DNA of 64,000 nt from a virus (Duplodnaviria; Caudoviricetes). The notes under the pieces are model-generated. The model saw nothing but the letters and a program-made list of their open reading frames with translations. It did not search any database and was not told where the DNA came from. Where the stretch lies: IMG/VR virus record IMGVR_UViG_3300025502_001322, positions 64,001-128,000 of that record. One strand, given 5' to 3'. Shown here one piece after another: positions 2,382 through 42,086 of the stretch; within the stretch, counting starts at the first letter, position 1, and each line of letters starts with the position of its first letter. A program made the position numbers and the translations under genes.

Positions 2382-3890
2382 ATGTATGACGCAGTTTTTC
2401 TCACCGACCATGATGATGTAACCGATGTCAGTATCATAACATTAGGTCCATATAAATGCGCACACGTCTTACGCAAACTAGGTTACAAATGTCTTGTTGT
2501 AACCAACACGGTGAATTTCACCGAAGAAGATTTTAAAGAATTATTTTTTTACGCTATAGGACATAATACAAAGTTAGTGGGGTTCAGCACAACTTTCCAA
2601 TGGGTCAGTGAAGATGGTCTTGCGTCAGGTGAAAAGAGCAGAGAAGAACTAATTCTCATTGAGATAAAGAAATATAACAAAGACACGAAGATTGTTTTAG
2701 GAGGATCAAAATCACACAGAGAGTGCGCTAATAAAAATGTAGATTTTGCTGTAGTAGGACTAGGTGAGACAAGTATAGTTCATATTATGAATCACCTAGA
2801 TCATGGGCAACCACTAAAAGACAGTTTTGTAAACATACATGGCGTCACTATTGTTGACAGTCAAAATAAAGAAACATATGATTTTATGTCTGATGTGATG
2901 CATTGGTTGCCGGAGGATGTAGTTAATTATAGAACACTACCTATTGAAATGGCCAGGGGGTGTATATTCAAATGTAAATTTTGTTTTCACAGAAATTTAG
3001 GCAAAAAGAAGTTAGAGTACGTTAAAAAGTTTGATGCTCTCAAACAAGAACTGCATCAAGCATACAAGGACTTTAATATCACTCATTATCAGATAGTAGA
3101 CGACACATTTAATGATGATGTAGACAAACTTGAACAGATTAGGAAAGTAACAGACACATTACCAGAACAACTCCGTCTCTGGTGTTATATGAGATTAGAC
3201 CTACTAGGCCGCAATCCACAAAGCATACCTATACTAAAGGATATGGGGGTTAGAGCTACAATATTCGGAATAGAGACCATGCATCCTAAAGCGGCTTCTG
3301 TTATAGGCAAAGGTGGTAGCAGACAGCGAGTAATAGACACTTTGCAGATGTTACGTACAGACTTCTCTGACTTATCAATGCATAGTGGTTTTATTGCGGG
3401 ACTGCCTTATGAACCTGTATCATCTTTAGAACGTACTTTAGAAGATTTAATATCTGGTAAAATACCGTTACATAGTTGGAACTGGATGGCATTTGTAATA
3501 CAAAAGTCAGGAATATATCAGGCAGACAGTACTTTTAACCTAGAGTATGAGAAATACGGCTATAGGAATAGAGGTTATGTTTGGGCAGATAAAAAGACAA
3601 TTAACCAAGTAGCCAACAATGCACTAGTTAACTGGGAAAGAGACGACTGGAATTTTGAAGATGCCTGGAAATGGACAACCCAAAAAGAATTTGAGAGTGT
3701 AAATTGTGGAACATACCACTACGACGGACTATTAGCCGTTGGCACACACACTTTCCCAGCCCCTAAGTTGGACTTTGACCTCATGCGTAAAACACTATAT
3801 CAGGATGTTGATTTTTCACTGATACGTCGTGCCAAAATGCAATTTATTCAAGACTATAAGAAAAAATTATTCAAATTAATAAAAACTTAA
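2382..3890 (+). CDS. Cobalamin-binding (class B-like) radical SAM protein 1
   Basis: N-terminal B12-binding-like domain (GPYKCAHVLR...VGFST...IVLGG...GLGE), then EMARGCIFKCKFC (CxxxCxxC), DDTFN, FGIET. Confidence 0.85.
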   Translation: MYDAVFLTDHDDVTDVSIITLGPYKCAHVLRKLGYKCLVVTNTVNFTEEDFKELFFYAIGHNTKLVGFSTTFQWVSEDGLASGEKSREELILIEIKKYNKDTKIVLGGSKSHRECANKNVDFAVVGLGETSIVHIMNHLDHGQPLKDSFVNIHGVTIVDSQNKETYDFMSDVMHWLPEDVVNYRTLPIEMARGCIFKCKFCFHRNLGKKKLEYVKKFDALKQELHQAYKDFNITHYQIVDDTFNDDVDKLEQIRKVTDTLPEQLRLWCYMRLDLLGRNPQSIPILKDMGVRATIFGIETMHPKAASVIGKGGSRQRVIDTLQMLRTDFSDLSMHSGFIAGLPYEPVSSLERTLEDLISGKIPLHSWNWMAFVIQKSGIYQADSTFNLEYEKYGYRNRGYVWADKKTINQVANNALVNWERDDWNFEDAWKWTTQKEFESVNCGTYHYDGLLAVGTHTFPAPKLDFDLMRKTLYQDVDFSLIRRAKMQFIQDYKKKLFKLIKT

Positions 3891-3987
3891 AGGTACGAAT
3901 GTAATTTTCTTAGTAATGAAAAAAGGTTAATAAATCTTGGTAAAAAGATTGCAAAAGAGTTCAATTTCAGTTATATTTTATGGTTAC

Positions 3988-4077
3988 GGAGAGTTGGCTG
4001 AGTGGCTAAAGGCAACGGTTTACTAAACCGTCATACGTGAATACGTGTCGTGGGTTCGAATCCCACACTCTCCGCCA
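3988..4077 (+). tRNA. tRNA-Ser with anticodon ACT (A34), long variable arm, CCA encoded
   Basis: Acceptor GGAGAGT/ACTCTCC, G73, stem ACGGT-[TTACTAA]-ACCGT, T arm GTGGG-TTCGAAT-CCCAC. Confidence 0.88.
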
Positions 4078-4083
4078 GACCAC

Positions 4084-4112
4084 TTGACAAGAAAGTTTTA
4101 CGGCACTACAAT
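4084..4112 (+). promoter_or_regulatory. Sigma70-type promoter
   Basis: TTGACA-17 nt-TACAAT upstream of the AdoMetDC gene. Confidence 0.65.
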
Positions 4113-4161
4113 AAATAACATCTATAATCTATTAGAAATAAATAACATCTATAATCTATTA
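4110..4161 (+). repeat. Perfect 25-nt direct repeat containing a late-promoter-like AATAAATA
   Basis: AATAAATAACATCTATAATCTATTA at 4110-4134 and 4137-4161. Confidence 0.9.
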
Positions 4162-4177
4162 AAGGAGAAAAAATTAG

Positions 4178-4540
4178 ATGGCATACTGGGGATATCACGC
4201 AATGTTTGATTGCGCCGCATGTGACAAAGAACTTGTTATGAGCAAAGAAAATGTTTATAACTTTATTAAAGAATTAGTTCCAGCAATTGGTATGAAGGCA
4301 TTTGGTGAACCAATGATCGAGCATTTTGCTACGCATGCCCCTGATAAGGCAGGTCTTAGTTGTTGCCAAATGATTGAGACCAGTAATATTTGCGGACACT
4401 TTGTAGATAGCAATGGTGATGCTTATATTGATATTTTTTCGTGTAAGCCAGTTGATATTGGTGTAGCACAAGATGTTATTGAAAAGTTTTTTAAGCCTAC
4501 AAAAACTCGTGTTAATTTCTTAACACGTAGCGCAGGATAA
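4178..4540 (+). CDS. speD: S-adenosylmethionine decarboxylase (class 1b) family proenzyme, paralogue 1
   Basis: WGYH...IETSNICGHF (pyruvoyl-forming Ser region)...YIDIFSCK; 120 aa. Actual substrate uncertain. Confidence 0.85.
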   Translation: MAYWGYHAMFDCAACDKELVMSKENVYNFIKELVPAIGMKAFGEPMIEHFATHAPDKAGLSCCQMIETSNICGHFVDSNGDAYIDIFSCKPVDIGVAQDVIEKFFKPTKTRVNFLTRSAG

Positions 4541-4552
4541 ATTGGAGATAGT

Positions 4553-4708
4553 ATGACAGTTAAAAAGAAGAACAGCCCATTAGCATATGAATCAGGCAAT
4601 CCAAGACTTGGTCCAATGAGTACTGAAGCATTACAAGACCTACTAGGTAAATGTAGACCAAGACACAAGAACAAAATTTCACACGAGTTAGCAAAACGTA
4701 GTAAATAG
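4553..4708 (+). CDS. Small basic hypothetical protein (51 aa)
   Basis: Hand-translated MTVKKKNSPLAYESGNPRLGPMSTEALQDLLGKCRPRHKNKISHELAKRSK; GGAG RBS. Confidence 0.6.
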   Translation: MTVKKKNSPLAYESGNPRLGPMSTEALQDLLGKCRPRHKNKISHELAKRSK

Positions 4709-4714
4709 ATGCGT

Positions 4715-4788
4715 GCCCGGTTAGTTAAATGGTATAACGATGGTTTTGTAAACCTTAATTGGCAGTTCAATTCTGTCACTGGGCACCA
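4715..4788 (+). tRNA. tRNA-Thr (TGT)
   Basis: Acceptor GCCCGGT/ACTGGGC, loop TTTGTAA, T arm with TTCAATT, ACCA end. Confidence 0.88.
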
Positions 4789-4809
4789 TTTTTCAATTAT
4801 AGGTACAAT

Positions 4810-5232
4810 ATGAAAAAACTTATAGCGACAGTACTAATTTTAATATCACCGTTTGTGTTTGCACGTCGTGAATATATTGATGATCCTGCACTGCATGTAC
4901 ATGAACCAACAGAAACTCTACGCTTCATGCCCCAAGAAATTGATAAAGTTTTAGGTAGGCCTGACATATTTGAGGCATATTGGGAAATTAACGGTCCGTA
5001 CATAAACAACAATAAAGTTCACATGCGTAGAATGTTGTTCTTTGTGGACTGTTCACCAGAAAACTTCCCTGAAACTAAACCAGTGCATGTAGCTCTAAGC
5101 ACGATTGCGCTAGGTGGAGAGCAAGGTCATATGATTAAGATTATCTTAGTCCCACCCGGCACTGAAGAGTGGATGGATTGGTCTGAAGTAAGTTTTATTA
5201 AACAAGAAGATATTTCAAAGATATGTAAATGA
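4810..5232 (+). CDS. Hypothetical exported-type protein
   Basis: MKKLIATVLILISPFVFA signal-like start; start chosen at 4810 because the longer ORF overlaps the tRNA. Confidence 0.6.
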   Translation: MKKLIATVLILISPFVFARREYIDDPALHVHEPTETLRFMPQEIDKVLGRPDIFEAYWEINGPYINNNKVHMRRMLFFVDCSPENFPETKPVHVALSTIALGGEQGHMIKIILVPPGTEEWMDWSEVSFIKQEDISKICK

Positions 5233-5271
5233 AGTTCGAGTCTCGTCCGTTCCGCCAAGTAAGTATATAAT

Positions 5272-6945
5272 ATGTTTAATAATGACAAGCCCAACGTAAT
5301 ACTACTTTCTGATTTTGGCAATCAACTATACCTAGAGAAAACAATAGGCCCATATAAGATTGCACAACAGTTACGTAGTGCTGGCTTTGAAGTCGCAGTT
5401 GTTCATCACCTGATGACGTTTACTTTGACTGAAGTTAAACATATTCTTACACACCTAATATCAGACAAAACACTGTTTGTAGGTGTTAACAACTTCTTCT
5501 ACAAAAAAATTGTTAATTACGAAACAATAGAGTTACAGTACCCAGATCCTCATGCTATTATCCCGCACGGCAGTGAGTTTAACGCAGAGATAAAACAGCT
5601 GATACTAGAATGCAATCCCAATTGTAAACTAGTACTTGGTGGACCTAACGCCTGTGACATTCCTATATATAGTGACTATGATTATATAATACTGGGGTAT
5701 GCTGAAATGTCTATAATTAATCTTGCTAAACACCTTGAGAACCCAGTAATATATTTAGATAAAGCACGGGTAAGCAAACATGGTTTTACAGTTATCGACG
5801 ACAGCAAAGCACCCACATACGACTTTGTTAACCATGTTATGCACTACGAAGATCATGATGCAATTATTGATTATGAAACGCTGGTAGTTGAAATTGCACG
5901 TGGTTGTATCTTTCAGTGTAAGTTTTGTAGTTATCCACTTAATGGCAAAAAGAAACTGGACTTTATTAGAACTGAAGAAAGTTTATATCGAGAGTTCATG
6001 GACAATTATGAACGTTTTGGTATAACCAATTATACAATTAGTGATGATACCTTAAACGACAGCGTAGAGAAATGTGAAATGCTGGCTAACCTTACAGAAC
6101 GGTTACCGTTCCAGCCGATGTATAGTGCCGCAGTAAGATTAGATCTCATGACCAAACACAGGGACACGATTGACATGCTGTGGCAAGCAGGGTTGCGATC
6201 AGCGTTCTTTGGTATAGAGAGTATGCATAGTGAAGCGGCTAAGTTTGTGGGCAAGGGAGGTTCCAGAGAACGCCTAATAGAAACATTAAAATACATACGC
6301 AACACTTATGGCGGTGAGTTAAATCAGACAGGTGGGTTTATTTTAGGTTTGCCCAAAGAACCATTAAGCAGTATGCGTGAAACTATAGATTGGCTGTTGA
6401 GTGACGATAACCCACTAGATATATGGCAAATGTTTCCCTTAATGATCAGAGATATGAGTCTTGTACAAGGTGGAAACGGATTTGTTAGCGACTTTGATAA
6501 AAACTGGAAACTGTACGGATACGAAGACACCGGTATTAAAACTAGCAAATACTATATGCATGGTTATATTCCTTGGCGTAATGAATTTACAGATTTTAAT
6601 GAAGTCAGTGACATGGTAGACGATGCAGAGTCTACACGCCGTCTTCACAAGGACACGTCTAGTAATGCAGGTAGACACGTACTTTTACTAGCCAGTTTGG
6701 TTGCTAAAGAGAGTGCTATTATTGCTCAGACGGATTATCTTAACATCAACTGGGACCAACTAAACACCCTTAAACTAGAAAAGAGTCTTAAATACAAAGA
6801 CATGTTATTCAAACAGTGTAATATACCCAACATTGACAGGGCAGGCACATATAGAACTTTTACTGAGGTTATACAATCTAAAGAATACCGCAGAAATCAC
6901 TTACTACTTCCGACTCATCCTTGGTATTCAAACGTGTTTGTCTAA
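5272..6945 (+). CDS. Cobalamin-binding (class B-like) radical SAM protein 2
   Basis: GPYKIAQQLR...LVLGGP...GYAE; EIARGCIFQCKFC; DDTLN; FFGIES; clear paralogue of 2382-3890. Confidence 0.85.
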   Translation: MFNNDKPNVILLSDFGNQLYLEKTIGPYKIAQQLRSAGFEVAVVHHLMTFTLTEVKHILTHLISDKTLFVGVNNFFYKKIVNYETIELQYPDPHAIIPHGSEFNAEIKQLILECNPNCKLVLGGPNACDIPIYSDYDYIILGYAEMSIINLAKHLENPVIYLDKARVSKHGFTVIDDSKAPTYDFVNHVMHYEDHDAIIDYETLVVEIARGCIFQCKFCSYPLNGKKKLDFIRTEESLYREFMDNYERFGITNYTISDDTLNDSVEKCEMLANLTERLPFQPMYSAAVRLDLMTKHRDTIDMLWQAGLRSAFFGIESMHSEAAKFVGKGGSRERLIETLKYIRNTYGGELNQTGGFILGLPKEPLSSMRETIDWLLSDDNPLDIWQMFPLMIRDMSLVQGGNGFVSDFDKNWKLYGYEDTGIKTSKYYMHGYIPWRNEFTDFNEVSDMVDDAESTRRLHKDTSSNAGRHVLLLASLVAKESAIIAQTDYLNINWDQLNTLKLEKSLKYKDMLFKQCNIPNIDRAGTYRTFTEVIQSKEYRRNHLLLPTHPWYSNVFV

Positions 6946-6948
6946 ATG

Positions 6949-6977
6949 TTGACAGCACCTAAGAGTTGTAGTATTAT
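6949..6977 (+). promoter_or_regulatory. Sigma70-type promoter
   Basis: TTGACA-17 nt-TATTAT. Confidence 0.6.
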
Positions 6978-7019
6978 TATTATGATTCTGAAACTTACTT
7001 ACGTTAACAAGAGGCCAAC

Positions 7020-7220
7020 ATGGCAACCAACGCTGAAATAGAAAAACTGGTAGAAATACTAAAATTCACTCCATGTACATATACGATCAGTGTCTCTGGA
7101 TACGGCAGGGAGCATACATTTGGTCATATGCCTAATCAGTCAAGTATAGTATACATGGGGAAGCACGATCTTAATTGGGAAGATGTTATGGGGATGAGCC
7201 CTGATGAATGGGATGATTAG
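7020..7220 (+). CDS. Hypothetical protein
   Basis: 66 aa ORF with GAGG RBS after the promoter. Confidence 0.55.
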   Translation: MATNAEIEKLVEILKFTPCTYTISVSGYGREHTFGHMPNQSSIVYMGKHDLNWEDVMGMSPDEWDD

Positions 7221-7575
7221 TTATAGCACAAACATGATGGGTCCTTGGCATACGAGTTGGTATACTGAAAGAGGACTTACTCACAAAGCAACTCGCACAG
7301 TGACCTCTGACATCATCAAAGGATACTCTCCTGGTGACACAATAGAGTATGATGAAATAACCACACATTATGCTGGTGGTAGAATAGATATTCGTGGCGT
7401 TCCAGATGAACCATATGGTCTCGAATATGGTCTAGCGGTGATGCACGGTGAGGATTGGAACGCATTAAGTGAATGGTTAGCTGATTTTGAATCTGAAGAG
7501 CTTGTGTCACACGACTCTCTCATAGAACAATTTGAAAATGATTATGGTAAAAAGATAAGGTGGTGGAACGACTAA
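7204..7575 (+). CDS. Hypothetical acidic protein
   Basis: 123 aa ORF; start uncertain. Confidence 0.5.
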   Translation: MNGMISYSTNMMGPWHTSWYTERGLTHKATRTVTSDIIKGYSPGDTIEYDEITTHYAGGRIDIRGVPDEPYGLEYGLAVMHGEDWNALSEWLADFESEELVSHDSLIEQFENDYGKKIRWWND

Positions 7576-7651
7576 TGAAAATTAAGTTTGATAAAGAATC
7601 TATACAACTTAGACGAATGGGTTTAATCCTAACGATACATGAGGAACAAGA

Positions 7652-7924
7652 ATGACAACTAACTTTACAAGACAGAATGACCAAACAAAACCATCAGATA
7701 GAAAAAGAAGCACAACATTAGAAGTCAAGATGGATCTAGTGTTAAGTAAACTCGACAAGATTTTAAACAACCTAGATGCAATTAATTTTACTGAATATAC
7801 TTACACTGAAGAAGAAATACAAATTATGACTACACAAAATGACTTCTGTTCCAGTACTGACCGGGACGAAGAAGCATATAATAAGTTTTTAACTGAATTA
7901 AATGACGGATATTCTCCCCAGTAA
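7652..7924 (+). CDS. Hypothetical protein
   Basis: 90 aa ORF with GAGG RBS. Confidence 0.5.
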   Translation: MTTNFTRQNDQTKPSDRKRSTTLEVKMDLVLSKLDKILNNLDAINFTEYTYTEEEIQIMTTQNDFCSSTDRDEEAYNKFLTELNDGYSPQ

Positions 7925-7932
7925 ATAACTGT

Positions 7933-8286
7933 ATGCCTTGGGGTTACCATTATCACTACGATGTTGCTGGTTGCAGTAACGTATCAGACAAAGAACATGT
8001 TACTGGTTTTATCAAAGAACTAGTTACCAGTATAGACATGACGCCACTAGGCGAACCTTTTGTGGAACACATAAATGTAGAAGGTGTAGACAGTGGTATA
8101 ACCGCAGTACAAGTTATTACAACAAGCAGTATCACAGCGCATTTTATAGACGATACAGGTGATCTTTACCTAGACGTTTTTAGTTGTAAAGAGTTTGATG
8201 TAAATAACGTTAAGGCAGTAGTAGACAAATTCTTTAAACCAAAATTATGCGCAGAATCATTCATGACCCGACAAGCACCAAGATAA
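7933..8286 (+). CDS. speD: S-adenosylmethionine decarboxylase family proenzyme, paralogue 2
   Basis: WGYH...GEP...VITTSSITAHF...YLDVFSCK; aligns with 4178-4540. Confidence 0.8.
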   Translation: MPWGYHYHYDVAGCSNVSDKEHVTGFIKELVTSIDMTPLGEPFVEHINVEGVDSGITAVQVITTSSITAHFIDDTGDLYLDVFSCKEFDVNNVKAVVDKFFKPKLCAESFMTRQAPR

Positions 8287-8315
8287 CGGGTAAAGATATC
8301 AATGAGGAGAGTTTT

Positions 8316-8678
8316 ATGAAGAGACTAATTTATATTGCAGGCAGTATTAGTTTAATTGGACTACTAATGTATCCGATTCTTTCAACTTCCGGAGTAACAG
8401 GCACAGCCGCACCAGGATCAGGTGCTAACGTAAAATCTGCAGGTGAAATTGTTGCTAAACAGAACCACTGCCTAGCATGCCACAGTGTGGATAACAAACT
8501 GGTTGGTCCGGCATTTAAGGACGTAGCTAATAAATATACAGAGGCCGACCGTGAGTTTTTAGTTAACAAAATTGTTAAAGGTGGTGGTGGGGTGTGGGGG
8601 CCAATCCCGATGCCGCCAAATGCTGTAGACCAACAGCAAGCAAACCAAGCAGTTACTTGGATTTTGGATCTTAAATAG
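8316..8678 (+). CDS. Class I c-type cytochrome (c551/c552-like) with N-terminal signal/anchor
   Basis: CLACH haem motif, KLVGPAFKDVANKY, GVWGPIPMPPN (axial Met); GAGGAG RBS. Confidence 0.92.
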   Translation: MKRLIYIAGSISLIGLLMYPILSTSGVTGTAAPGSGANVKSAGEIVAKQNHCLACHSVDNKLVGPAFKDVANKYTEADREFLVNKIVKGGGGVWGPIPMPPNAVDQQQANQAVTWILDLK

Positions 8679-8791
8679 ACGGCCAGTTATCCGCATCAAC
8701 AACGGGTATATGTATAAAACCAATTTTTATAACAAGCTCTTTAATAATTGTATGAATAAATATGTTTATACATTTAATAAGGGCTTGTCAA

Positions 8792-9553
8792 ATGTCAGAC
8801 ATAAAAGAAATACACCTGCATGCTGAATGCGCACAGATTGCCTACCTAGGTCTTAAAGAGGCAAAACCAAAATTTAAAAAACTTGGACTTAAAGTTAATA
8901 GTTACTACGACATTGACGGTGCCCAGGCATACTTACTAACAAACAAAGATAGAAGCATACTGGCATTTAGAGGCACAGAGCCCAAAGAAAAGTCAGATAT
9001 TTTCGCTGACTTAAATGCTCTTAGAGATCCAGAACCAACAGGTGGTAGAGTGCATCAGGGCTTCCAGGGAGAAGTTGATAAACTCTGGCCAGAGATAACA
9101 AAGGACCTATTGACTGCTAAAATTAACACTAACTTAACAGTGTGCGGTCACTCATTAGGTGCGGCAATGGCAACTATTGCGGCAGGAAGATTACACTGTC
9201 AACTAGTAAACACTAATTGTGATTTTAAAGAATTATATACATTTGGCTCACCTAGGGTAGGTAATAGACAATGGTTAAAACACGTTGAAGGCATGATCCA
9301 TCACCGTTGTGTTAACAATAATGACTTAGTGCCCAAGGTTCCGCCTGCATTAATGCTTTACAAACACCAAGGAAATCTAGTATACTTTAACTGTTACGGA
9401 AGTATTAGAAAAACCACAATGTGGCAAAGATTCAAAGACCAAATACGTGGACGTAGACGTGCATTACAAAAGGGACAACCGTTTGATGGCATCTACGATC
9501 ATGTCATGACAGAGTACATACGATCAATTGACACAAACCTAACGGAGGAATAA
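8792..9553 (+). CDS. Class 3 lipase / alpha-beta hydrolase
   Basis: LAFRGTE, RVHQGF, CGHSLGAAMA (GxSxG), YTFGSPRVG, NNDLVPKVP, DH; start chosen downstream of the AATAAATA at 8755. Confidence 0.9.
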   Translation: MSDIKEIHLHAECAQIAYLGLKEAKPKFKKLGLKVNSYYDIDGAQAYLLTNKDRSILAFRGTEPKEKSDIFADLNALRDPEPTGGRVHQGFQGEVDKLWPEITKDLLTAKINTNLTVCGHSLGAAMATIAAGRLHCQLVNTNCDFKELYTFGSPRVGNRQWLKHVEGMIHHRCVNNNDLVPKVPPALMLYKHQGNLVYFNCYGSIRKTTMWQRFKDQIRGRRRALQKGQPFDGIYDHVMTEYIRSIDTNLTEE

Positions 9554-9599
9554 AAGGTAGCTAACCGAAGTAATAAAGACGCAACATAAAGCGGCTTTT

Positions 9600-9842
9600 T
9601 TATTTGGCGTACTTTAATTTATAGAAGAGTTCGTTCTCTTCTGACAGTTTTGCTGTCACCACAACACGGTATTCCCATTGACCTGGACGTATATAAAATA
9701 CAGGTTTCTCCAATGCATTATCTAATACCCATTGTCCGTGGTCAGTTTGTTGCCACTCCCATAATGGTTGGGCGGCATATATTTCAGGATCTTCGCAATC
9801 GGATAGGTCAAACGCATGTACTTCTATTTCTTTACGATTCAT
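9600..9842 (-). CDS. Hypothetical phage protein
   Basis: 80 aa ORF. Confidence 0.6.
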   Translation of the reverse strand: MNRKEIEVHAFDLSDCEDPEIYAAQPLWEWQQTDHGQWVLDNALEKPVFYIRPGQWEYRVVVTAKLSEENELFYKLKYAK

Positions 9843-9855
9843 AATTTAATTATAT

Positions 9856-9884
9856 TTGACATTGTTAGATAATGCAAGTATAAT
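9856..9884 (+). promoter_or_regulatory. Consensus sigma70 promoter
   Basis: TTGACA-17 nt-TATAAT. Confidence 0.75.
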
Positions 9885-9910
9885 GAACATATTAACAAAA
9901 GGACTCAGTA

Positions 9911-10360
9911 ATGTTAAAGGCAACCCCAATAGTAAAAAACAAATTTTGGTTAGTAACAAGTAACGGTGAAAAAGTTGGTGCCGTAAAGTCCAGTGACAAA
10001 GGGCTAACGTATATACACGGCGACGAAGAAGAACGTTTTGCAACAGTTAAACTGTTAGAAGACAAGTACAATATTAAGTTTGAGTCATACAAATCAGATA
10101 ATGTTAAAGATTCAGAATACGAAGCATACGGAGCATACGGATATCCTACCGGTAATAACTACCCCCATAACCCCTTGTGGCATATACAACTAGGTATACC
10201 AGTGTTTACTAAAGAAGAAAAATCTCGTAGTTTTTACTGTGCGGGTTACTATCTGGTTAAAGAACGCAATAAAACTAAGTTGCGATTCTGTCCTAAAATT
10301 ATTCTATTAGAACGCAATGAGTTTGAAGGGCCTTTAAAGACCACATTAGGAAACTTTTAA
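9911..10360 (+). CDS. Hypothetical phage protein
   Basis: 149 aa ORF downstream of the promoter. Confidence 0.65.
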   Translation: MLKATPIVKNKFWLVTSNGEKVGAVKSSDKGLTYIHGDEEERFATVKLLEDKYNIKFESYKSDNVKDSEYEAYGAYGYPTGNNYPHNPLWHIQLGIPVFTKEEKSRSFYCAGYYLVKERNKTKLRFCPKIILLERNEFEGPLKTTLGNF

Positions 10361-12159
10361 AAGTCGTCTAACGAAGAATACGAACCTTCATGTTCATGAG
10401 TATCAGGAACATTGTGAGGTTGTAGTATTAACGCAAGTAGTGTGTCTCTTTTTTGTTCGTACGTCTGACCTGCGTATAGGCCTTCTGGGGGAATAGTACC
10501 CATGTCCACAAACATTGTTCTCTTCATAAAGTTCCACATATCCACAGTATACACACTGGTATAGAAATAAGCATCCAGTGTTTTTCCTAATACAATATCC
10601 TCGCATTTCTTAGATATAATACGCCAGACGTCGTTGGCGCCAGGTGTTTCGAACCACGACAACGCCAGATCCAGGAAGTCTGTTAACATAGTGCTATGGT
10701 ACCCTGAGTAAAATTGTTTTAGCCAGGTGGCCACTTTAAAGTTATCTATAGCAGTTTGTGTGCCTTTAATGTAACTTATACAGATTGGGAATTCCTCAAG
10801 GTCGTCTTCTGTTGGTGGCCTTGTTAGGATGTCACCAGGAACCTTTAAGTTTAGTACCTTAACTCCAATCTTTTCTCTGTATTCTTTGCTACCCACTGGG
10901 CTATTTGGTAGATACATCCAGAGATACCAACGTGTTCTAACATTACATTTCAGTACTTCGTACTGTGTGTCTAGCATACTTTGTGGTGTTTGGTTAGGCA
11001 TACCACTTATTAACTCTGTAACTAACTGCAAATCAGGAAATTTTGACTGTATGTTATGTATGTATTCTTTGTGTTTTTCCCAGGGTATCTCAGGTCTGTC
11101 AATCGCAGCCAATACGTCTTTATCGACATCTTGGAAACTTAGTGTCCAGGTTATTAGGTTTACATTTTCTGGATCACCATCAAACTTTTCAGTAAGCATA
11201 TAGTCAAATATTTCATACACTCTGTCTTTCTGCAACTTAGCCCAGGTTATCTCCCAAGGACAAATTACCTTAGGATATTTACGTCTCACTTTTGCCCAGA
11301 ACTTTGTTATATCCATGTCACGTGGGACTTGTCCAAAGTTTGCATCACAGAGCTTTAAGTATCTAATGTCTTCTTGTCCAAAGAACGCAAGATCTTTGTA
11401 AATTGGTATTAGACTCCAAAACGTAACTTTATTATGTAGCCCGCTGGTCCAGTCACAAAATGCGCAGTGGTACGGACACCCTCGGCTTGCCTCAAAATTA
11501 ACAATTGCAGTTAATCCTTGCTGTTTAGCCCAGGCAAACCATTCCCTAACAAGTTTTCTATTGTGCCACCATAACGGAATACCGAAGAATTTTTTATCCT
11601 TAAACGTAGCATGCTTTGCTTTAACTATCTTATCGCCTTCTATCCACAAAGCATTTTCAGTCTCTTCGATAACAGGTGTTTTGTCCTCAAAGTGGCAGTC
11701 TAAGATGTATTTTACAAACTTGTAGCCATCACCGTAACATGCGTATGTGATCCAATCTCTTTCATTAAGCCAAGTATAATCTTTGTGCTCTACTTCAGGA
11801 CCACCCACCATAACCTTAATATTAGGAAGTTTTTTCTGAACTGCTCGTACAATCTTTGCTAGACCTGGCTGAGTCCATATATACATACCCACAAACAACC
11901 AGTCTGATTGATTCTCTACAATTTGATCTACGTATGTGTTAACATAGTCTTCAGTAGGTAAAACTTGATGCCAGTCAACTTGTTTAGCAAGCTCAGGACT
12001 ATACAGATCGTAGTATGTCTTAAAATGCAACATACTGGCATTTATAAACCATGCTGGTCTAGGCTCAGTACTCATTTTATGCTTAGATACGACAGTATTA
12101 TGAAATATTGTCGTATCGAGGATACAGTTTATGAAACTAATCTTTAATTTTTTTGTCAT
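10357..12159 (-). CDS. Cobalamin-binding (class B-like) radical SAM protein 3
   Basis: FVGMYIW...VMVGGPE...YGDG; EASRGCPYHCAFCDW; DANFG; probable start MTKKLK at 12159. Confidence 0.85.
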   Translation of the reverse strand: MTKKLKISFINCILDTTIFHNTVVSKHKMSTEPRPAWFINASMLHFKTYYDLYSPELAKQVDWHQVLPTEDYVNTYVDQIVENQSDWLFVGMYIWTQPGLAKIVRAVQKKLPNIKVMVGGPEVEHKDYTWLNERDWITYACYGDGYKFVKYILDCHFEDKTPVIEETENALWIEGDKIVKAKHATFKDKKFFGIPLWWHNRKLVREWFAWAKQQGLTAIVNFEASRGCPYHCAFCDWTSGLHNKVTFWSLIPIYKDLAFFGQEDIRYLKLCDANFGQVPRDMDITKFWAKVRRKYPKVICPWEITWAKLQKDRVYEIFDYMLTEKFDGDPENVNLITWTLSFQDVDKDVLAAIDRPEIPWEKHKEYIHNIQSKFPDLQLVTELISGMPNQTPQSMLDTQYEVLKCNVRTRWYLWMYLPNSPVGSKEYREKIGVKVLNLKVPGDILTRPPTEDDLEEFPICISYIKGTQTAIDNFKVATWLKQFYSGYHSTMLTDFLDLALSWFETPGANDVWRIISKKCEDIVLGKTLDAYFYTSVYTVDMWNFMKRTMFVDMGTIPPEGLYAGQTYEQKRDTLLALILQPHNVPDTHEHEGSYSSLDDF

Positions 12160-12193
12160 ATAAGTAATTACAACTAAACGGAAGGTGTACAAG

Positions 12194-12201
12194 TATTTAT
12201 A
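12194..12201 (-). promoter_or_regulatory. Late promoter TATAAATA (minus strand)
   Basis: Exact TATAAATA on the minus strand about 35 nt upstream of 12159. Confidence 0.5.
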
Positions 12202-12413
12202 TGAACACTCATTATATAAACCAATTAAACAATAAAATACAGATTTTAAATTCTGGCCCAAATAAGCAGATTATATTAAGCAAGCAGGAAGCACAAGGAC
12301 TGCACAATGAGGTTTACCGGCTTCTGGCTAGGATAGCAGAGCTTGAGGGGATTCAAGAGCAACAGCCCACCGAGGAAGTTATTCGAGCAAATGTAGATGG
12401 TGGTGGTTGGTAA
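12201..12413 (+). CDS. Hypothetical protein
   Basis: 70 aa ORF. Confidence 0.55.
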   Translation: MNTHYINQLNNKIQILNSGPNKQIILSKQEAQGLHNEVYRLLARIAELEGIQEQQPTEEVIRANVDGGGW

Positions 12414-12430
12414 TATACGTATATTATTGG

Positions 12431-12438
12431 TATAAATA
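12431..12438 (+). promoter_or_regulatory. Late promoter TATAAATA
   Basis: Exact motif 5 nt upstream of the ATG at 12444. Confidence 0.5.
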
Positions 12439-12443
12439 ATACT

Positions 12444-12731
12444 ATGTCGAGACCCAAACCAGACGTTCTATTAGAACACGTTAATAAACAAAATTACAAG
12501 AGTGATCAAGTCATTGCTTCTCAGGGCATATGGGCAGTTTACCACAACGGTCACCCTATTAACTTAAAAAGTGCAAATATGTTGGTTAGTTATCCTGGGC
12601 CCAAGTATAAGAAAACAAGTTTTAGTAACCCAGGACACGCAATTAATCTTGCAAAGAAACTCAACAAACTGTTTGATACTGCATTATTCAGTGTGGTGTT
12701 ATTAAAAGCAGGTGAGCAAGTCTTCCCTTAG
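12444..12731 (+). CDS. Hypothetical phage protein
   Basis: 95 aa ORF (MSRPKP...GPKYKKTSFSNPGHAINLAKKLN). Confidence 0.7.
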   Translation: MSRPKPDVLLEHVNKQNYKSDQVIASQGIWAVYHNGHPINLKSANMLVSYPGPKYKKTSFSNPGHAINLAKKLNKLFDTALFSVVLLKAGEQVFP

Positions 12732-13056
12732 ATCACAAGTTAGCGAATATCTGTCTAAAGAAACAGGACTTAAGCCGGTTCACATCTGGGTTAATCCATT
12801 AAACAAGACAAGTATGCGTTTGTCTGTGACTGCCTACCGAACACTTAAAAAATTAAAGTTCCAGCGATTCACACACAAGTTTACTGACCGGATAACACCA
12901 AGGCACATGCTGGAATTAGACAGACTATTCAAGTATCCATATTACATAAGCAGTTACCAAACCATAGAAGTATTTTCTGAAGAGGATACCCTAATGCTAA
13001 CGTTAAACAACAATAATTTAGATAACTATCTGAAAGCACTTCGCCTAAGTTGTTGA
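12712..13056 (+). CDS. Hypothetical protein
   Basis: 114 aa ORF. Confidence 0.6.
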   Translation: MSKSSLRSQVSEYLSKETGLKPVHIWVNPLNKTSMRLSVTAYRTLKKLKFQRFTHKFTDRITPRHMLELDRLFKYPYYISSYQTIEVFSEEDTLMLTLNNNNLDNYLKALRLSC

Positions 13057-13076
13057 TTTAAAACAAAAACAAAAGG

Positions 13077-13105
13077 TTGACGCAATGTTCGAGTAACACT
13101 ATAAT
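13077..13105 (+). promoter_or_regulatory. Early sigma70-type promoter
   Basis: TTGACG-17 nt-TATAAT; near-identical to 13530-13558. Confidence 0.75.
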
Positions 13106-13155
13106 AGCACTTGAAGTACAGTTAGTTATTAATAATACTAATAAGGAGAGTAAAT

Positions 13156-13362
13156 ATGGGTTATTTTAATGAACTTGAAACAGATGTACTTGACTTGTAT
13201 TGTGCTGACGTTCCTGCAGACAAAATTGCTGAAGAATACGGAATCAGTATTGATTTGGTAGAGAAAATTGGCAAAAAGTGGGAACAAGAGAACAATCTTA
13301 ATGTGGTGTCACGCTCAGTGAAGACTTCGCCAAAGACCGTGTGTAAGTTGTTGGCTTACTAA
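13156..13362 (+). CDS. Small protein, possible helix-turn-helix
   Basis: 68 aa; VPADKIAEEYGISIDLVEKI; AAGGAG RBS. Confidence 0.55.
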   Translation: MGYFNELETDVLDLYCADVPADKIAEEYGISIDLVEKIGKKWEQENNLNVVSRSVKTSPKTVCKLLAY

Positions 13363-13372
13363 ACAATGGTGC

Positions 13373-13460
13373 GCCCGGGTGGCGAAATTGGTAGACGCAC
13401 GGGACTTAAAATCCCGGGCCCCTTAAAGGCGTGCCGGTTCGATTCCGGCCCTGGGCACCA
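13373..13460 (+). tRNA. tRNA-Leu (TAA)
   Basis: Acceptor GCCCGGG/CCTGGGC, stem CGGGA-[CTTAAAA]-TCCCG, long variable arm, ACCA end. Confidence 0.93.
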
Positions 13461-13529
13461 ACTAATTCAGATTTATAGTACGTTGGGCAAGTGTTTGTTT
13501 TTAAACAGTTTCTTTTTTTGTCCAAATTG

Positions 13530-13558
13530 TTGACGTATGGTCCGAGTGACACTATAAT
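13530..13558 (+). promoter_or_regulatory. Early sigma70-type promoter
   Basis: TTGACG-17 nt-TATAAT. Confidence 0.75.
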
Positions 13559-13592
13559 ATACATATGCTGTTAATAAAGAAGAGGGGAAACA

Positions 13593-13733
13593 ATGTATAA
13601 AGTCGATTTTTATAATTTTGGTTATTTGAAGCACTTCGACACACTCGAGCAAGCAATTGAAAATGCAAAGTCTTCAGGATTTCAATGTGCGGTTTGGTTT
13701 GATAATGCACTGATTAAACACTTTGGAGGGTAA
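13593..13733 (+). CDS. Small hypothetical protein (46 aa)
   Basis: Hand-translated MYKVDFYNFGYLKHFDTLEQAIENAKSSGFQCAVWFDNALIKHFGG; GAGGGG RBS. Confidence 0.55.
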   Translation: MYKVDFYNFGYLKHFDTLEQAIENAKSSGFQCAVWFDNALIKHFGG

Positions 13734-13734
13734 T

Positions 13735-13914
13735 ATGACTGACGCAATTGATATGGCATTATTCTTAGAATCTATTAAGTATGACATCACCAACAAAATG
13801 GCATCATCAGAAGATGAAGTTGCATTAACAAACAAACTGGATCAGAAAATTGATGAACTGCGACGTGAGGTTTCTAGAATGCAGACTCACTTTGACAGCC
13901 AACTAACTTACTAG
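13735..13914 (+). CDS. Small coiled-coil-like hypothetical protein
   Basis: ORF with GGAGG RBS. Confidence 0.55.
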   Translation: MTDAIDMALFLESIKYDITNKMASSEDEVALTNKLDQKIDELRREVSRMQTHFDSQLTY

Positions 13915-13922
13915 GAGACGGT

Positions 13923-14132
13923 ATGCTTATAAGATCAGATGTAGCAATAGATGTATGCGGTGGTGATCAGTATTTGATGATACGGATGGCCGCACAACGA
14001 GCAAGAGAAATACTACAAGGCTCCGAACCTAGAGTCGTAGCAATTGAGGACGAAAAGGCAGCCAGCACCGCTATTAGAGAAATTGAGCTGGGCGTGTACA
14101 CCGTAGAGGATTTTAACCAGGGGGCAACATAA
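13923..14132 (+). CDS. rpoZ: RNA polymerase omega subunit homologue
   Basis: GGDQYLMIRMAAQRAREILQGSEPRV...EKAASTAIREIELG aligns by eye with the RpoZ pattern GNRFDLVLVAARRARQ...DPLV...DKTTVIALREIEEG; AGGAG RBS. Confidence 0.8.
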   Translation: MLIRSDVAIDVCGGDQYLMIRMAAQRAREILQGSEPRVVAIEDEKAASTAIREIELGVYTVEDFNQGAT

Positions 14133-14144
14133 CAGGAGATGCAG

Positions 14145-14315
14145 ATGGCTAATTATGCTATGGCACCAAAAAAACGTTGGTATGTTACAGAAGAAGGCAA
14201 AGAGATTGTACAACCATTTCCAAACACCGAGTACGAATGTCAAATTACTATAGACCGGTTAGTAGAAGAAAATGAGAAACGTATTCTAACTGTTGAAAGT
14301 GCGACACTGTCATGA
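14145..14315 (+). CDS. Small hypothetical protein (56 aa)
   Basis: Hand-translated MANYAMAPKKRWYVTEEG...; AGGAG RBS; ATGA overlap with the next gene. Confidence 0.55.
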   Translation: MANYAMAPKKRWYVTEEGKEIVQPFPNTEYECQITIDRLVEENEKRILTVESATLS

Positions 14316-14527
14316 ACGATCTGTTGGAGATGATAGATTTTTTAGGCGAACTTGATTACGACTTACATGGCAATATCTCAGGTGAAGAGTTAATTATGGT
14401 ACGTGAGAAACTACATCGGTATAAAGATAGATTAGAAGCAGAAGTTGATGTATTCGAAAATTCTTTCGAGGATACAAAAACAACATTCTACAGCTTGACA
14501 AGAGAAGAGAGTGGCAGTACACTGTAA
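14312..14527 (+). CDS. Hypothetical protein
   Basis: 71 aa ORF. Confidence 0.5.
   Translation: MNDLLEMIDFLGELDYDLHGNISGEELIMVREKLHRYKDRLEAEVDVFENSFEDTKTTFYSLTREESGSTL
14495..14523 (+). promoter_or_regulatory. Putative sigma70 promoter for the MoxR-VWA pair
   Basis: TTGACA-17 nt-TACACT upstream of a GGAGG RBS. Confidence 0.45.
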
Positions 14528-14555
14528 CTCTAACTTAAAGAAGGAGGTAATGTAG

Positions 14556-15683
14556 ATGGCTACTACAGAAACTACGCTAACAAGAACTAGTACATTAGAT
14601 GGTGTTAAACGAGTAATCGAACGATGTGCTAAATCAAAAAAGAAACATCCTATTATGCTCTGGGGTCCTCCAGGGGTAGGTAAGTCAGAAATTGTTGAAC
14701 AAATAGCAAGGGAATTAAATGGGCGGGTATGGGACTTACGTCTTGCACAGAATGACCCAACTGACATTAAAGGTATTCCTTACTATAATAAAGACAGCAA
14801 TAAAATGTCTTGGGCAGACCCAGACGAATTACCTAGCGCAGAAGAAACTAAAGACTATGGTACATGTTTCTTGTTTATGGACGAGATTAACTCTGCTCCT
14901 AGTGCAACACAGGCTAGTGCGTATCAGTTGGTATTAAACAGACGTGTAGGTAAGCACTACAAAGTTCCTGACAATGTTTACATTATTGCGGCAGGTAACC
15001 GAGAAGGTGATCGAGGTGTTACTTACAAGATGCCTAGTCCACTCGCTAATAGATTTATCCACATAGAAGTTCGACCAGACTACGAGACCTGGGAAAAGTG
15101 GGCAACTAAGAATCGTATCCACAAAGATGTAGTGGGTTATATTGGATTTGCCAAACAGGACTTGTTTGATTTTGATCCTAGAAACGCATCACGTGCCTTC
15201 GCAACGCCACGCACCTGGGAATTTGTATCCGACTGTTTACACGATTCTGATACTGATACAGAAACTATTACAGACATGGTTGCTGGTGCAGTGGGCGAAG
15301 GTATTGCTCTTAAGTTTATGGCGCATCGAAAGATTGCTGGACAGTTGCCCAAACCTGAAGAGATCCTTAACGGCAAAGTTAGTACACTTGAAATTAAAGA
15401 AATTAGTGCAATGTACTCTCTAACAATTGCATTGTGTTATGAGTTGCAGGACATCTATCGTAAGGTAGGTAACGACAGCAATGCACTAGATGCTTGGTAT
15501 AAACAGTCTGACAACTTCTTTAAATTTATGATGGAAAACTTTACAACTGAGTTGGTTGTGATGGGTGCCAGAACTGCTCTTACTACTTACGAGTTGCCGT
15601 TTATCCCTAGCAAGTTAAAGAGCTTTGATGAATTCCACAAACGCTATGGTAAGTATGTGGTTAGAACAACGGAGAAGAAATAA
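14556..15683 (+). CDS. MoxR-family AAA+ ATPase
   Basis: Walker A GPPGVGKS, Walker B LFMDEIN, AAGN, PLANRF (Arg finger), TPRTW. Confidence 0.9.
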   Translation: MATTETTLTRTSTLDGVKRVIERCAKSKKKHPIMLWGPPGVGKSEIVEQIARELNGRVWDLRLAQNDPTDIKGIPYYNKDSNKMSWADPDELPSAEETKDYGTCFLFMDEINSAPSATQASAYQLVLNRRVGKHYKVPDNVYIIAAGNREGDRGVTYKMPSPLANRFIHIEVRPDYETWEKWATKNRIHKDVVGYIGFAKQDLFDFDPRNASRAFATPRTWEFVSDCLHDSDTDTETITDMVAGAVGEGIALKFMAHRKIAGQLPKPEEILNGKVSTLEIKEISAMYSLTIALCYELQDIYRKVGNDSNALDAWYKQSDNFFKFMMENFTTELVVMGARTALTTYELPFIPSKLKSFDEFHKRYGKYVVRTTEKK

Positions 15684-16951
15684 TGACTGCGACCTCTGAA
15701 AAAGACCTAGGTCAGGCAGAAATTTTAGGGCCAACAGATCCAGAAGTGGATGCAGAGGCAATAGAGCTTCTCATAACTGCTAGGGTAGGACTTTTACTAA
15801 AACATCCGTTCTTCGGCAACATTGCTACAAGGCTTAGCCTTGTTAACGCAGATGAGTGGTGCCCTACAGCGGCTGTCGATGGCAGACGTATGTACTACAA
15901 CTCAAGGTTCATAGTAAAACACACGGTAGCAGAACTTCAGTTTTTGTTTGCACACGAAGTTCTACATTGTATCTATGACCACTTGGGAAGACGTGGTGAC
16001 CGTGATCCGCAACTAGCGAACTGCGCACAAGACTATGTGGTTAATGATGATCTGGTACAACACCACATAGGTGACATGATTAAACCTTGTCTATGGGATC
16101 CCAAGTACCGTGGTATGAGTTGGGAAGAAGTATACGATAAGCTATATGACCAGATGGACAAAGTTAGTCTTGCGCAATTAGTCGAATTAATGTTAGACGA
16201 ACACTTAGACGGTGAAGGTGAAGGTGGTGTTGGTGGCGACGGTGATGGTAAAGATGGTGACCAACAAGGAAAACGCCCAGCACTTAGTGATACAGAACGT
16301 GAACAGATTAAACAGGAAATTAAAGAAGCCATGTTAACTGCGGCTCAGACTAGCGGCGCTGGAAACTTACCGGCAGGCATTAAACGTTTAATTGAAAACA
16401 TGACTGATCCTAAGATAAACTGGCGTGAGCTTATTGCACAGGATATTGCGGCATGTTTTAAGAACGACTACAGTTTTACTCGACCTAATAAACGTGGTGC
16501 TCACATAGATGCAATACTTCCTGGCATGATACCTGGACAAAAGATTGACGTTTGTGTTTTTAATGACTGCTCAGGATCAATGACAGACTCCATGTTACGT
16601 GATATCCATTGTGAAGTAAAAGGTATTATGCAGACATTTCAGGAGTTTGACTTACACCTAGGAACATTTGACACTGATGTTTACAATTTCCAAACGTTTA
16701 CCACAGACAACATCGACGATATTGATCAATACGAAATGAAAGGTGGTGGTGGTACTAATTTTGAATCTGTCTACAACTTCCTTAAAGAACGTGACATTAT
16801 GCCCAAAAAGTTAATTATATTTACAGATGGTTATCCGTATGGTTCATGGGGAGACCCTAACTACTGCGATACAATATTTGTAATTCATGGCAGTAACGAC
16901 ATCAATGCACCATTTGGCATCACTTGCCAGTACGAAGAGTACAAAAAGTGA
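15683..16951 (+). CDS. Metallopeptidase-like (HExxH) plus VWA domain protein, partner of the MoxR ATPase
   Basis: FAHEVLH; acidic Gly-rich linker; MIDAS-like DCSGSM, GGGTNF, IFTDGY. Confidence 0.88.
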   Translation: MTATSEKDLGQAEILGPTDPEVDAEAIELLITARVGLLLKHPFFGNIATRLSLVNADEWCPTAAVDGRRMYYNSRFIVKHTVAELQFLFAHEVLHCIYDHLGRRGDRDPQLANCAQDYVVNDDLVQHHIGDMIKPCLWDPKYRGMSWEEVYDKLYDQMDKVSLAQLVELMLDEHLDGEGEGGVGGDGDGKDGDQQGKRPALSDTEREQIKQEIKEAMLTAAQTSGAGNLPAGIKRLIENMTDPKINWRELIAQDIAACFKNDYSFTRPNKRGAHIDAILPGMIPGQKIDVCVFNDCSGSMTDSMLRDIHCEVKGIMQTFQEFDLHLGTFDTDVYNFQTFTTDNIDDIDQYEMKGGGGTNFESVYNFLKERDIMPKKLIIFTDGYPYGSWGDPNYCDTIFVIHGSNDINAPFGITCQYEEYKK

Positions 16952-29521: not shown

Positions 29522-30299
29522 TGAATGTGTCCTTTATAAGTTCTGCGGCAGCCGTGTGTGCTGATTCTCTTGGGTGTGTTGTATACATAGGGTATTTATT
29601 TTCCACAGCCCATTGGTAAAAACCTCTGGGAGCAACTGTTTCTCCCTGATGTGTGCCTTTGGGAAACCAAAAAAACTTCTCCCAGTCTATACTGTTATAA
29701 ACTGCGGCAATACTGGGGTCTCTACCTTGTATATTATGATTATCCATAATACAGTTATCAGCGGCAGTAAACATATAAGGTATTGACATTTGTTTGAGGT
29801 ACATTTGTAGGTATAGTATCTCTTTAAGAGTAGTGTATGTTTTCCAATACATGTCAGCACCTACATGTTTAAAGTACGACTTAGCAAAGTCTGAAACTCC
29901 TGTGAGTCTCGCCCTCTCATTATGCTTGTTCTGCAATGTCTTTTGTTTGTGATCAACTTCAAAAAAGTAAACGCTGGGGTCAAAATCATCATCTTCAGCA
30001 ACCCAAGGACTAATGTTATACCAGTGACCACTGCGTTGACCAGTGTCGTAGTTAAATTTAAATTCGTACCTAGCAGGAAAAGTCCACTGTACTATTACAC
30101 CACATCTACCTATCTGAGATATTTCATTAATGACATTACGAGCAATACCTTGGTTACTCCAGCCGGGGCCAGCAACTAATCTATAGTCATGGTCTTGACT
30201 TAACAGTGCGGGCCATGTAGATGCACTACCGGTTTTAACGTCCCAGTCTTGTAATTCGACTCCGTGTATAAAACTACAACCGCCTGCTACTATAATCAT
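29487..30299 (-). CDS. SGNH-like protein, paralogue 2
   Basis: AGGCSFIHG, GWSNQGI, VQWTF, THP. Confidence 0.7.
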   Translation of the reverse strand: MIIVAGGCSFIHGVELQDWDVKTGSASTWPALLSQDHDYRLVAGPGWSNQGIARNVINEISQIGRCGVIVQWTFPARYEFKFNYDTGQRSGHWYNISPWVAEDDDFDPSVYFFEVDHKQKTLQNKHNERARLTGVSDFAKSYFKHVGADMYWKTYTTLKEILYLQMYLKQMSIPYMFTAADNCIMDNHNIQGRDPSIAAVYNSIDWEKFFWFPKGTHQGETVAPRGFYQWAVENKYPMYTTHPRESAHTAAAELIKDTFNDMVTQYSKQD

Positions 30300-32719: not shown

Positions 32720-32727
32720 AATCGTAT

Positions 32728-41632: not shown

Positions 41633-42086
41633 TCTCCTTTAAGTATTCTGGTTCCCAAAATGTATAATAATCTGTTTTTGCTAACTGCGTACGTGCGCCT
41701 AGTAGTTTCTGTTTATTTTGACACAGTATTAACTTATACTTGCCGTTATTAGTCTGCACACCGTTAATGTGTGTTTCTTTTTCACTGTCAGGTAAAAATA
41801 TCATATCAGGATATTGTTCTGCTAATCTAGCACAATGCTCTTTTAGTTCGTTGTGTGTCAGCGGGTTGTTATGACTTAACTTCTGTTCACTACAGATTAG
41901 TATCAGTACATCACACTTAATGTCTGGCAGTTCTTTAAGGTCTCTAATTTGTACATTAACTGCTCGCATCTTAGCCAGGTGTGCATAAGGACAAACACGA
42001 TTGCCGCCTAATTCTTCGTAAGGCATTACTAAACGTTTAATCCAGATTAATAGATGATTTTGTTGTTCATGTGTTGCTAAACGCAT
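41610..42086 (-). CDS. Hypothetical protein, DUF1415-like CPYA motif
   Basis: LGGNRVCPYA. Confidence 0.55.
   Translation of the reverse strand: MRLATHEQQNHLLIWIKRLVMPYEELGGNRVCPYAHLAKMRAVNVQIRDLKELPDIKCDVLILICSEQKLSHNNPLTHNELKEHCARLAEQYPDMIFLPDSEKETHINGVQTNNGKYKLILCQNKQKLLGARTQLAKTDYYTFWEPEYLKEIVGDSLD

Follow-up and report, generated by a model that had tools for sequence, protein, structure and literature searches.

Phages retool the RNA polymerase (RNAP) of their hosts by means of inhibitors, sigma-like factors, appropriators and covalent modification, and no description is known to us of a phage which supplies a replacement for one of the core subunits. Among the subunits of the bacterial RNAP omega is the one least understood; its gene rpoZ is found in many proteobacteria in the chromosomal setting gmk-rpoZ-spoT. 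In E. coli there is an rpoZ-spoT operon, and omega takes part in a binding site for the alarmone ppGpp: site 1 is made up of omega residues 2–5, other omega residues and R417, K615 and R362 of beta-prime, and its loss has modest effects only (PMC7676912). Among the phage factors, T4 AsiA/MotA and Alt/Mod, T7 Gp2, Xp10 P7 and P23-45 gp39 share the aim of redirecting or protecting the host RNAP (PMC3950348, PMC6624301). All of these are accessory binders or modifying enzymes, whereas the protein which we describe here is homologous to a core subunit and is expected in the place of that subunit. The regulatory axis considered here, that of the ppGpp sites, is shared by TraR/DksA-type factors, of which TraR binds in the secondary channel of RNAP (PMC7676912). 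In the Rhodobacter gene transfer agent a virus-derived regulator, GafA, works by direct contact with omega, although it is the omega of the host that is used (PMC9638019). A homologous fold in the same Pfam family is found in Rpb6/RpoK of eukaryotes, archaea and eukaryotic giant viruses. The giant-virus copies demonstrate that viruses can carry the subunit, but for their own polymerase; in the phage studied here we have found no viral polymerase, and its omega sequence is of the bacterial type.

The window which we have analysed is a stretch of 64,000 nucleotides, bases 64001–128000 of a 289,070-bp IMG/VR virus record of an uncultured phage. According to CheckV the record is about 80% complete. 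It encodes tail-fibre and virion-structural proteins, four tRNA genes are found in the phage DNA around omega, and the same DNA is present in at least 21 salt-lake metagenome runs. A sequence-only reading had singled out a 69-aa ORF with a strong ribosome binding site, behind twin early promoters: the gene, of 69 codons with an ATG start, its Shine-Dalgarno sequence and both promoters are all present (Table 1). Third-position GC in the gene (0.386) equals the GC of the genome (0.392). Around it we find small ORFs of the phage, a tRNA gene and an ATPase like that of PA5oct, not the gmk-rpoZ-spoT arrangement of bacterial chromosomes.

Table 1. Features at and around the phage omega gene; positions are those of the window.
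Feature	Position	Strand	Remarks
Promoter-like site 1, sigma-70 type, TTGACG-17-TATAAT	13077–13105	+	11/12 consensus positions; upstream of a 68-aa ORF and tRNA-Leu
tRNA-Leu (anticodon TAA)	13373–13460	+	found by ARAGORN; between the two promoters
Promoter-like site 2, sigma-70 type, TTGACG-17-TATAAT	13530–13558	+	11/12 consensus positions
46-aa ORF, first gene of the unit	13593–13733	+	no family; homologue upstream of omega in the 221-kb contig
59-aa ORF, second gene	13735–13914	+	no family
Shine-Dalgarno sequence AGGAG	13913–13917	+	5 nt ahead of the omega ATG
Omega (RpoZ/Rpb6-fold) gene, 69 aa	13923–14132	+	HMMs, fold, predicted docking, tree
Codons of Y59-T60 of omega	14097–14102	+	part of the G-x-Y-T motif
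56-aa ORF just 3' of omega	14145–14315	+	no family; kept downstream of omega in L005
71-aa ORF overlapping the preceding stop	14312–14527	+	weak PHROG match, function unknown

The product is almost certainly a protein of the omega fold. The sequence-only reading had taken it for RpoZ, had proposed a search with Pfam RNA_pol_Rpb6 as a check and had named the lack of any HMM or structural match as fatal to the identification. Matches of both kinds exist: the Pfam model (PF01192) gives 35.3 bits with a cut-off of 26 (E 1.2e-8), TIGR00690 (rpoZ) gives 29.8 bits with a cut-off of 23.6, and in a six-frame search of the genome the gene has an E-value of 5.8e-9. In PDB phmmer retrieves omega chains only. 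The alignment is ungapped and places residues 14–59 on residues 14–59 of E. coli omega, so that K45, A50, R52, E53, I54, E55 and G57 coincide in both proteins; the AAxRAR and A(I/L)REIE helices are shared residue for residue over this range. An AlphaFold2 model, built from 38 relatives, has a mean pLDDT of 89.2. Among its best 50 Foldseek matches in PDB there is nothing but omega from solved structures of bacterial RNAP, with TM 0.64–0.82 and probability 0.99–1.00; their E-values are just 0.012 and weaker, because the protein is short. Four residues (R26, G33, A50 and E53) are invariant across 38 viral omegas. Thus the phage protein shares with proteobacterial RpoZ (E. coli omega, 4jk1, 8tom) the family cut-offs, the helical fold and, as described below, the predicted seat on beta-prime. 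It differs from it in other features: proteobacterial RpoZ lies in the gmk-rpoZ-spoT setting, has a median length of 91 aa, an acidic tail and a MARVT start, while here we find a phage gene for a protein of 69 aa, which is missing the acidic tail of host omegas and starts with MLIRS.

The predicted docking was obtained with E. coli beta-prime (residues 330–940 and 1131–1407), a stand-in for that of the phage's own host. The cofold of both proteins has an ipSAE of 0.73, against 0.00 for the best of three controls; the docking mark is reached by 58 of 80 solved complexes and by 2 of 110 mismatched pairs. The runs share at least 78% of their contacts, and the pLDDT of the partner is at least 78. 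Omega residues 14–31 and 43–48 are predicted to lie on beta-prime 474–488, 907–912 and 1360–1364, and residues 1–6 on beta-prime 362, 364, 417–420 and 613–618, which correspond to ppGpp site 1. The predicted interface is the normal seat of omega on beta-prime. Since many omega/beta-prime structures have been solved, such a result may be a memory of solved complexes, and it would then speak for likeness to omega rather than for binding by the phage copy. We consider it probable that the phage protein binds host beta-prime as omega does. The homology with omega is thus supported by HMMs, by fold and by predicted docking, in a real phage.

Omegas about 75% identical to the window copy are found on four related viral contigs. 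In one related contig of 221 kb the 46-aa ORF, the counterpart of the 59-aa ORF, omega and the 56-aa ORF follow each other in matching order. By comparison with relatives which are 70–75% identical we obtain pS 0.72 and pN 0.17, a dN/dS of about 0.08 in which the synonymous sites are saturated: the gene is under purifying selection. The ORF is a real gene under selection, which codes for an omega subunit. When 1.84 billion representative proteins were searched exhaustively with HMMER, only 16 matched at E ≤ 0.001, and the best viral-type relative outside its own clade has 50.9 bits and 55% identity. We traced P0005, P0018, P0023 and P0033 (representatives or cluster members): none of the four has the gmk-rpoZ-spoT setting, and on the three longer traced contigs the surroundings of omega are of phage type (Mtd_N fibre domains, 2OG-Fe(II) oxygenases, ThyX, ClpP, HSP70). 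A pattern scan of IMG/VR found at least 44 contigs with omega. The parent genomes implied by CheckV for the omega-bearing contigs are mostly of 250–550 kb, typically about 350 kb. Terminase_6N was considered as a marker and given up: of 32 viral contigs with omega, which are fragmentary, only 2 have it.

In a maximum-likelihood tree of 140 sequences (80 columns kept, with a bacterial sample rich in Gammaproteobacteria and an unknown root) a branch of length 0.96, with support 100/99, parts the 86 bacterial omegas from the viral and metagenomic ones. The window omega belongs to a clade of six with support 99/98. The best match in 401 Pseudomonadota genomes has 31.6 bits and 40% identity, and among the matches listed none exceeds 48%; no close bacterial copy was found by a pattern scan of the genome_contigs collection. 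Side by side with the tree stands a sequence signature, a G-x-Y-T motif after the EIE helix, found in 45 of 54 omegas of viral or metagenomic origin and never among the 86 of bacteria. The window omega has this motif. It is one of many members of an omega lineage which is specific to phages and has a signature of its own, a membership which the sequence-only reading had missed. The best match in BFVD, A0A6J5T227, is 40% identical with TM 0.80. Together with A0A6J7WH19 it is filed in UniProt/BFVD as 'DNA-directed RNA polymerase [uncultured Caudovirales phage]'. In both cases gene and virus are of the kind described here, although their names are automatic only, and the paper which we take to be their source has no mention of omega.

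Among 50,697 phage records tblastn found no match for the window omega, and PHROGs has no family either for it or for two other viral omegas. The matches of these two other omegas in the same records were rejected, as they fall only in bacterial or contaminated records. Four phage-filed records (MG065691.1, MG065686.1, CAKLQH020000003.1 and AFYI01000003.1) have omega genes of enterobacterial or Acinetobacter type, and two "Campylobacter phage" genomes give the same match, with 50% identity and an equal score, as records labelled E. coli or Salmonella. The omega genes in such phage-filed records probably represent contamination or bacterial contigs.

The sequence-only reading had also pointed out that the N-terminal MAR of proteobacterial omega is not conserved. 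This is the case in the window copy, which starts MLIRS where E. coli omega has MARVT, and the in-register motif is lost across its whole clade: the N-termini are MLIRS, MMARS, MSEIAGRS and MSKIAGRS, with no MAR-type start in register. A start of the form MAR[VI][TI] is found in 86 of the 86 bacterial omegas compared, nearly always as MARVT or MARIT; the wider viral family, counted as 53 distinct sequences, has a MAR-type start in 27. The conserved arginine is shifted, in the alignment, to the position of T5. An arginine (R4) is kept one or two positions away; R4 and R52 are both present in the phage protein and might still hold ppGpp. An initiator Met before Leu is normally not removed, and the free N-terminus of the phage omega therefore probably differs as well. 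An N-terminus of this type fits a weakened or altered ppGpp site 1. It is rather doubtful, in our opinion, that the phage omega alters the ppGpp response, the more so as E. coli tolerates the loss of site 1 with mild effects (PMC7676912). Blindness to ppGpp cannot be the general purpose of viral omegas, because about half of them keep MAR(V/I)T, and the idea of a retuned stringent response as a general rule is weakened by these sequences and by the nearby R4. The sequence-only reading had proposed that a phage omega could displace host omega and blunt or retune the stringent response; such retuning is a hypothesis only.

Concerning other genes of alarmone metabolism, HD_4 and zf-dskA_traR (TraR/DksA) domains have no match in the phage genome, which differs in this respect from the TraR/DksA systems. 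A gene with a MazG domain is found outside the window, at G000:C1:8854-9069, far from omega. An omega-bearing contig of viral type (L013:1784-6167) has genes for ClpP, an HD_4 (SpoT-type hydrolase) protein and HSP70. In this HD_4 gene there is a hint that viral omega and the turnover of alarmones are connected in that lineage.

The two promoter-like sites are identical in 24 of 29 positions. Site 2 is the closest promoter upstream of omega: 365 nt separate its end from the start codon, with no terminator-like site on the + strand in between. Since only two small ORFs and no such site follow site 2 before omega, we place omega third in a unit of small genes close to the promoter. Nine sites with at most one mismatch to TTGACA-N17-TATAAT occur in the window, where shuffled sequence has 1.11 ± 1.04. 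Of these sites seven belong to the + strand at positions 2854–14789, in the first 15 kb, where they stand among small ORFs and four tRNA genes; this part of the + strand looks like an early region driven by host RNAP. The promoter type, the gene size and the anatomy of the region are what suggest that omega is expressed early. An ORF of 55 aa at 13366–13533 was discarded as an artefact, since it overlies the tRNA-Leu gene. The 59-aa ORF has a counterpart by position in L005 (5470–5643), of similar size and with a shared ...HFD(S/T)QL(T/S)Y tail when the translations are compared by eye.

Three metatranscriptome runs contain small shares of the stretch. Their contigs cover 13158–13306, 13365–13460, 13584–13939 and 14727–14943, and the body of omega lies outside them. 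The aquatic contigs at 13584–13939 span both ORFs upstream of omega, with DNA carry-over as a possible source. One of them differs at 2 letters; the other, which reaches 13939, differs at 12 of 199 and is thus from a related phage.

We will now consider the polymerase on which this phage depends. A Pfam search of the 289-kb record, about four fifths of a genome in which divergent pieces of phiKZ type could escape the models, gave no match to Rpb1_1, Rpb1_2 or Rpb2_6 (PF04997, PF00623, PF00562), nor to Sigma70_r2 or a T7-type RNAP; the split beta/beta-prime of phiKZ/AR9 type was not found in the record. By their MoxR-type AAA ATPase, which has 49% identity with that of this phage, the PA5oct-like jumbo phages of Pseudomonas are the closest cultured relatives. 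PA5oct is reported to rely on host RNA polymerase (PMC7318152), and no omega was found in it. The simplest reading is that the phage relies on the host polymerase and supplies omega to it.

Our proposal as a whole is that an early phage omega becomes the omega of host RNAP and that the site-1 response to ppGpp is weakened or altered; we give it a probability of about 0.5. Unmodified host RNAP would probably make omega early, given that the gene stands third among the small ORFs which follow a near-consensus sigma-70 promoter. The protein would then most likely become the omega of the host enzyme, either by incorporation into core which is newly made or free of omega or through exchange, since the helices which clamp beta-prime are kept in the register of E. 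coli 14–59 and the predicted seat is the normal one. It is likely, as judged from these features, that it takes the place of host omega. The changed equivalents of omega residues 2–5 would give a host polymerase with a weakened or altered site-1 response, and all phage transcription would pass through this enzyme, because no polymerase has been detected in the phage itself. An altered site 1 would keep phage promoters active in starved hosts. It appears unlikely, although worth stating, that a lineage of huge aquatic phages swaps a core subunit of host RNAP and that in this clade site 1 is disabled or rewired, so that the starvation alarm is ignored.

The phage omega might instead act just like host omega, in the folding of beta-prime and the assembly of the core, with no regulatory change: the phage would top up the omega pool while the long infection of a jumbo phage lasts, or where its salt-lake host is under stress. 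The strictly conserved core which clamps beta-prime, the canonical docking predicted for it and the host-like MAR start in half of the viral family all agree with such a supply, and chaperoning beta-prime is the established role of omega (PMC7598289). On the other hand E. coli omega is dispensable, and much the same amount of it is present whatever the growth conditions (PMC7676912); furthermore the viral omegas are a distinct old lineage with a motif of their own, which suggests a function unlike that of the host copy. We see supply without regulation as an unlikely but serious explanation. A different possibility is that omega is a handle which brings one or more phage proteins to host RNAP, perhaps through the exposed Y59-T60, as a natural counterpart of omega-tethered activation. 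Y59-T60 is outside the predicted contacts with beta-prime; however, the docking covered beta-prime 330–940 and 1131–1407 only, so that these residues may touch beta-prime 1–329 or the remaining subunits. GafA offers a precedent for a regulator that contacts omega, as mentioned above. A conserved, all-helical protein of about 190 aa, almost solely viral, adjoins omega in 24 of 49 other viral and metagenomic omega loci. Omega overlaps its start by 4–29 nt, or the partner begins within 1 nt (L015:8001-8782, L013:7684-8509, L031:4992-5775 and 21 further loci). The pair looks translationally coupled and may form a two-gene module. This partner has no Pfam, PDB or usable PHROG match, and its structural relatives in the ESM Atlas fall in clusters which are 91–100% viral. 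In the window genome, however, tblastn found no such partner, and by hhalign the three small ORFs which flank omega are unrelated to it: the window clade thus differs from many other viral omegas both in its N-terminus and in the absence of the partner. A role as a handle is improbable for the omega studied here.

There are two further explanations. The gene could be a captured host gene without a role, or a decoy which binds a target other than beta-prime: it is small, and the RNA contigs leave it uncovered. The low dN/dS, the gene order kept in the 221-kb contig, the copies on four related contigs and a third-position GC equal to that of the phage make a passenger gene or an assembly artefact unlikely; the recurrence of the same DNA in the salt-lake runs and the lack of a close copy in genome_contigs and in the 401 Pseudomonadota genomes also speak against this explanation, to which we give very little credit. 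Finally, omega could be a subunit of a multisubunit polymerase of the phage itself, like Rpb6 in eukaryotic giant viruses. The incomplete record leaves some room for such an enzyme, and the beta and beta-prime pieces of jumbo phages are very divergent. Nevertheless there are no Rpb1/Rpb2 domains in 289 kb, the omega sequence is in register with gammaproteobacterial omega, and the jumbo phages known to have multisubunit RNAP encode no alpha or omega (PMC7598289). We regard a polymerase of the phage as the least credible of all.

An omega that enters the host enzyme, as we propose, would be the first case in which a cellular RNA polymerase receives from a virus a substitute for one of its core subunits. 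Our search of the literature, a 2026 jumbo-phage review included, did not turn up any account of omega, rpoZ or Rpb6 in a phage; neither the 50,697 phage records, nor PHROGs, nor the literature gave us a genuine cultured phage, a family or a paper with one. The phage probably inserts its own omega into the transcription machine of the host, and for such a takeover strategy we found no description in papers. The viral omegas, diverged and strongly selected, are a ready set of variants (site-1 N-terminus, absence of the tail, invariant Y-T) with which the part of omega in assembly, sigma choice and the stringent response can be probed. If the ppGpp response is altered, a direct route at the level of the polymerase would be added to the ways in which phages counter starvation-based restriction. 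If it is not, the conservation in viruses would mean that the 'dispensable' omega matters more than laboratory deletion phenotypes suggest.

Other features of the window deserve mention. The MoxR-type AAA ATPase adjoins a DUF2201 metallopeptidase/VWA protein, both at 14556–16951; the PHROG of the VWA protein is named 'HNH endonuclease', at odds with its Pfam domains. On the – strand, at 30274–43254, there is a run of paralogous ORFs of 384–487 aa, two of which match a radical-SAM PHROG.
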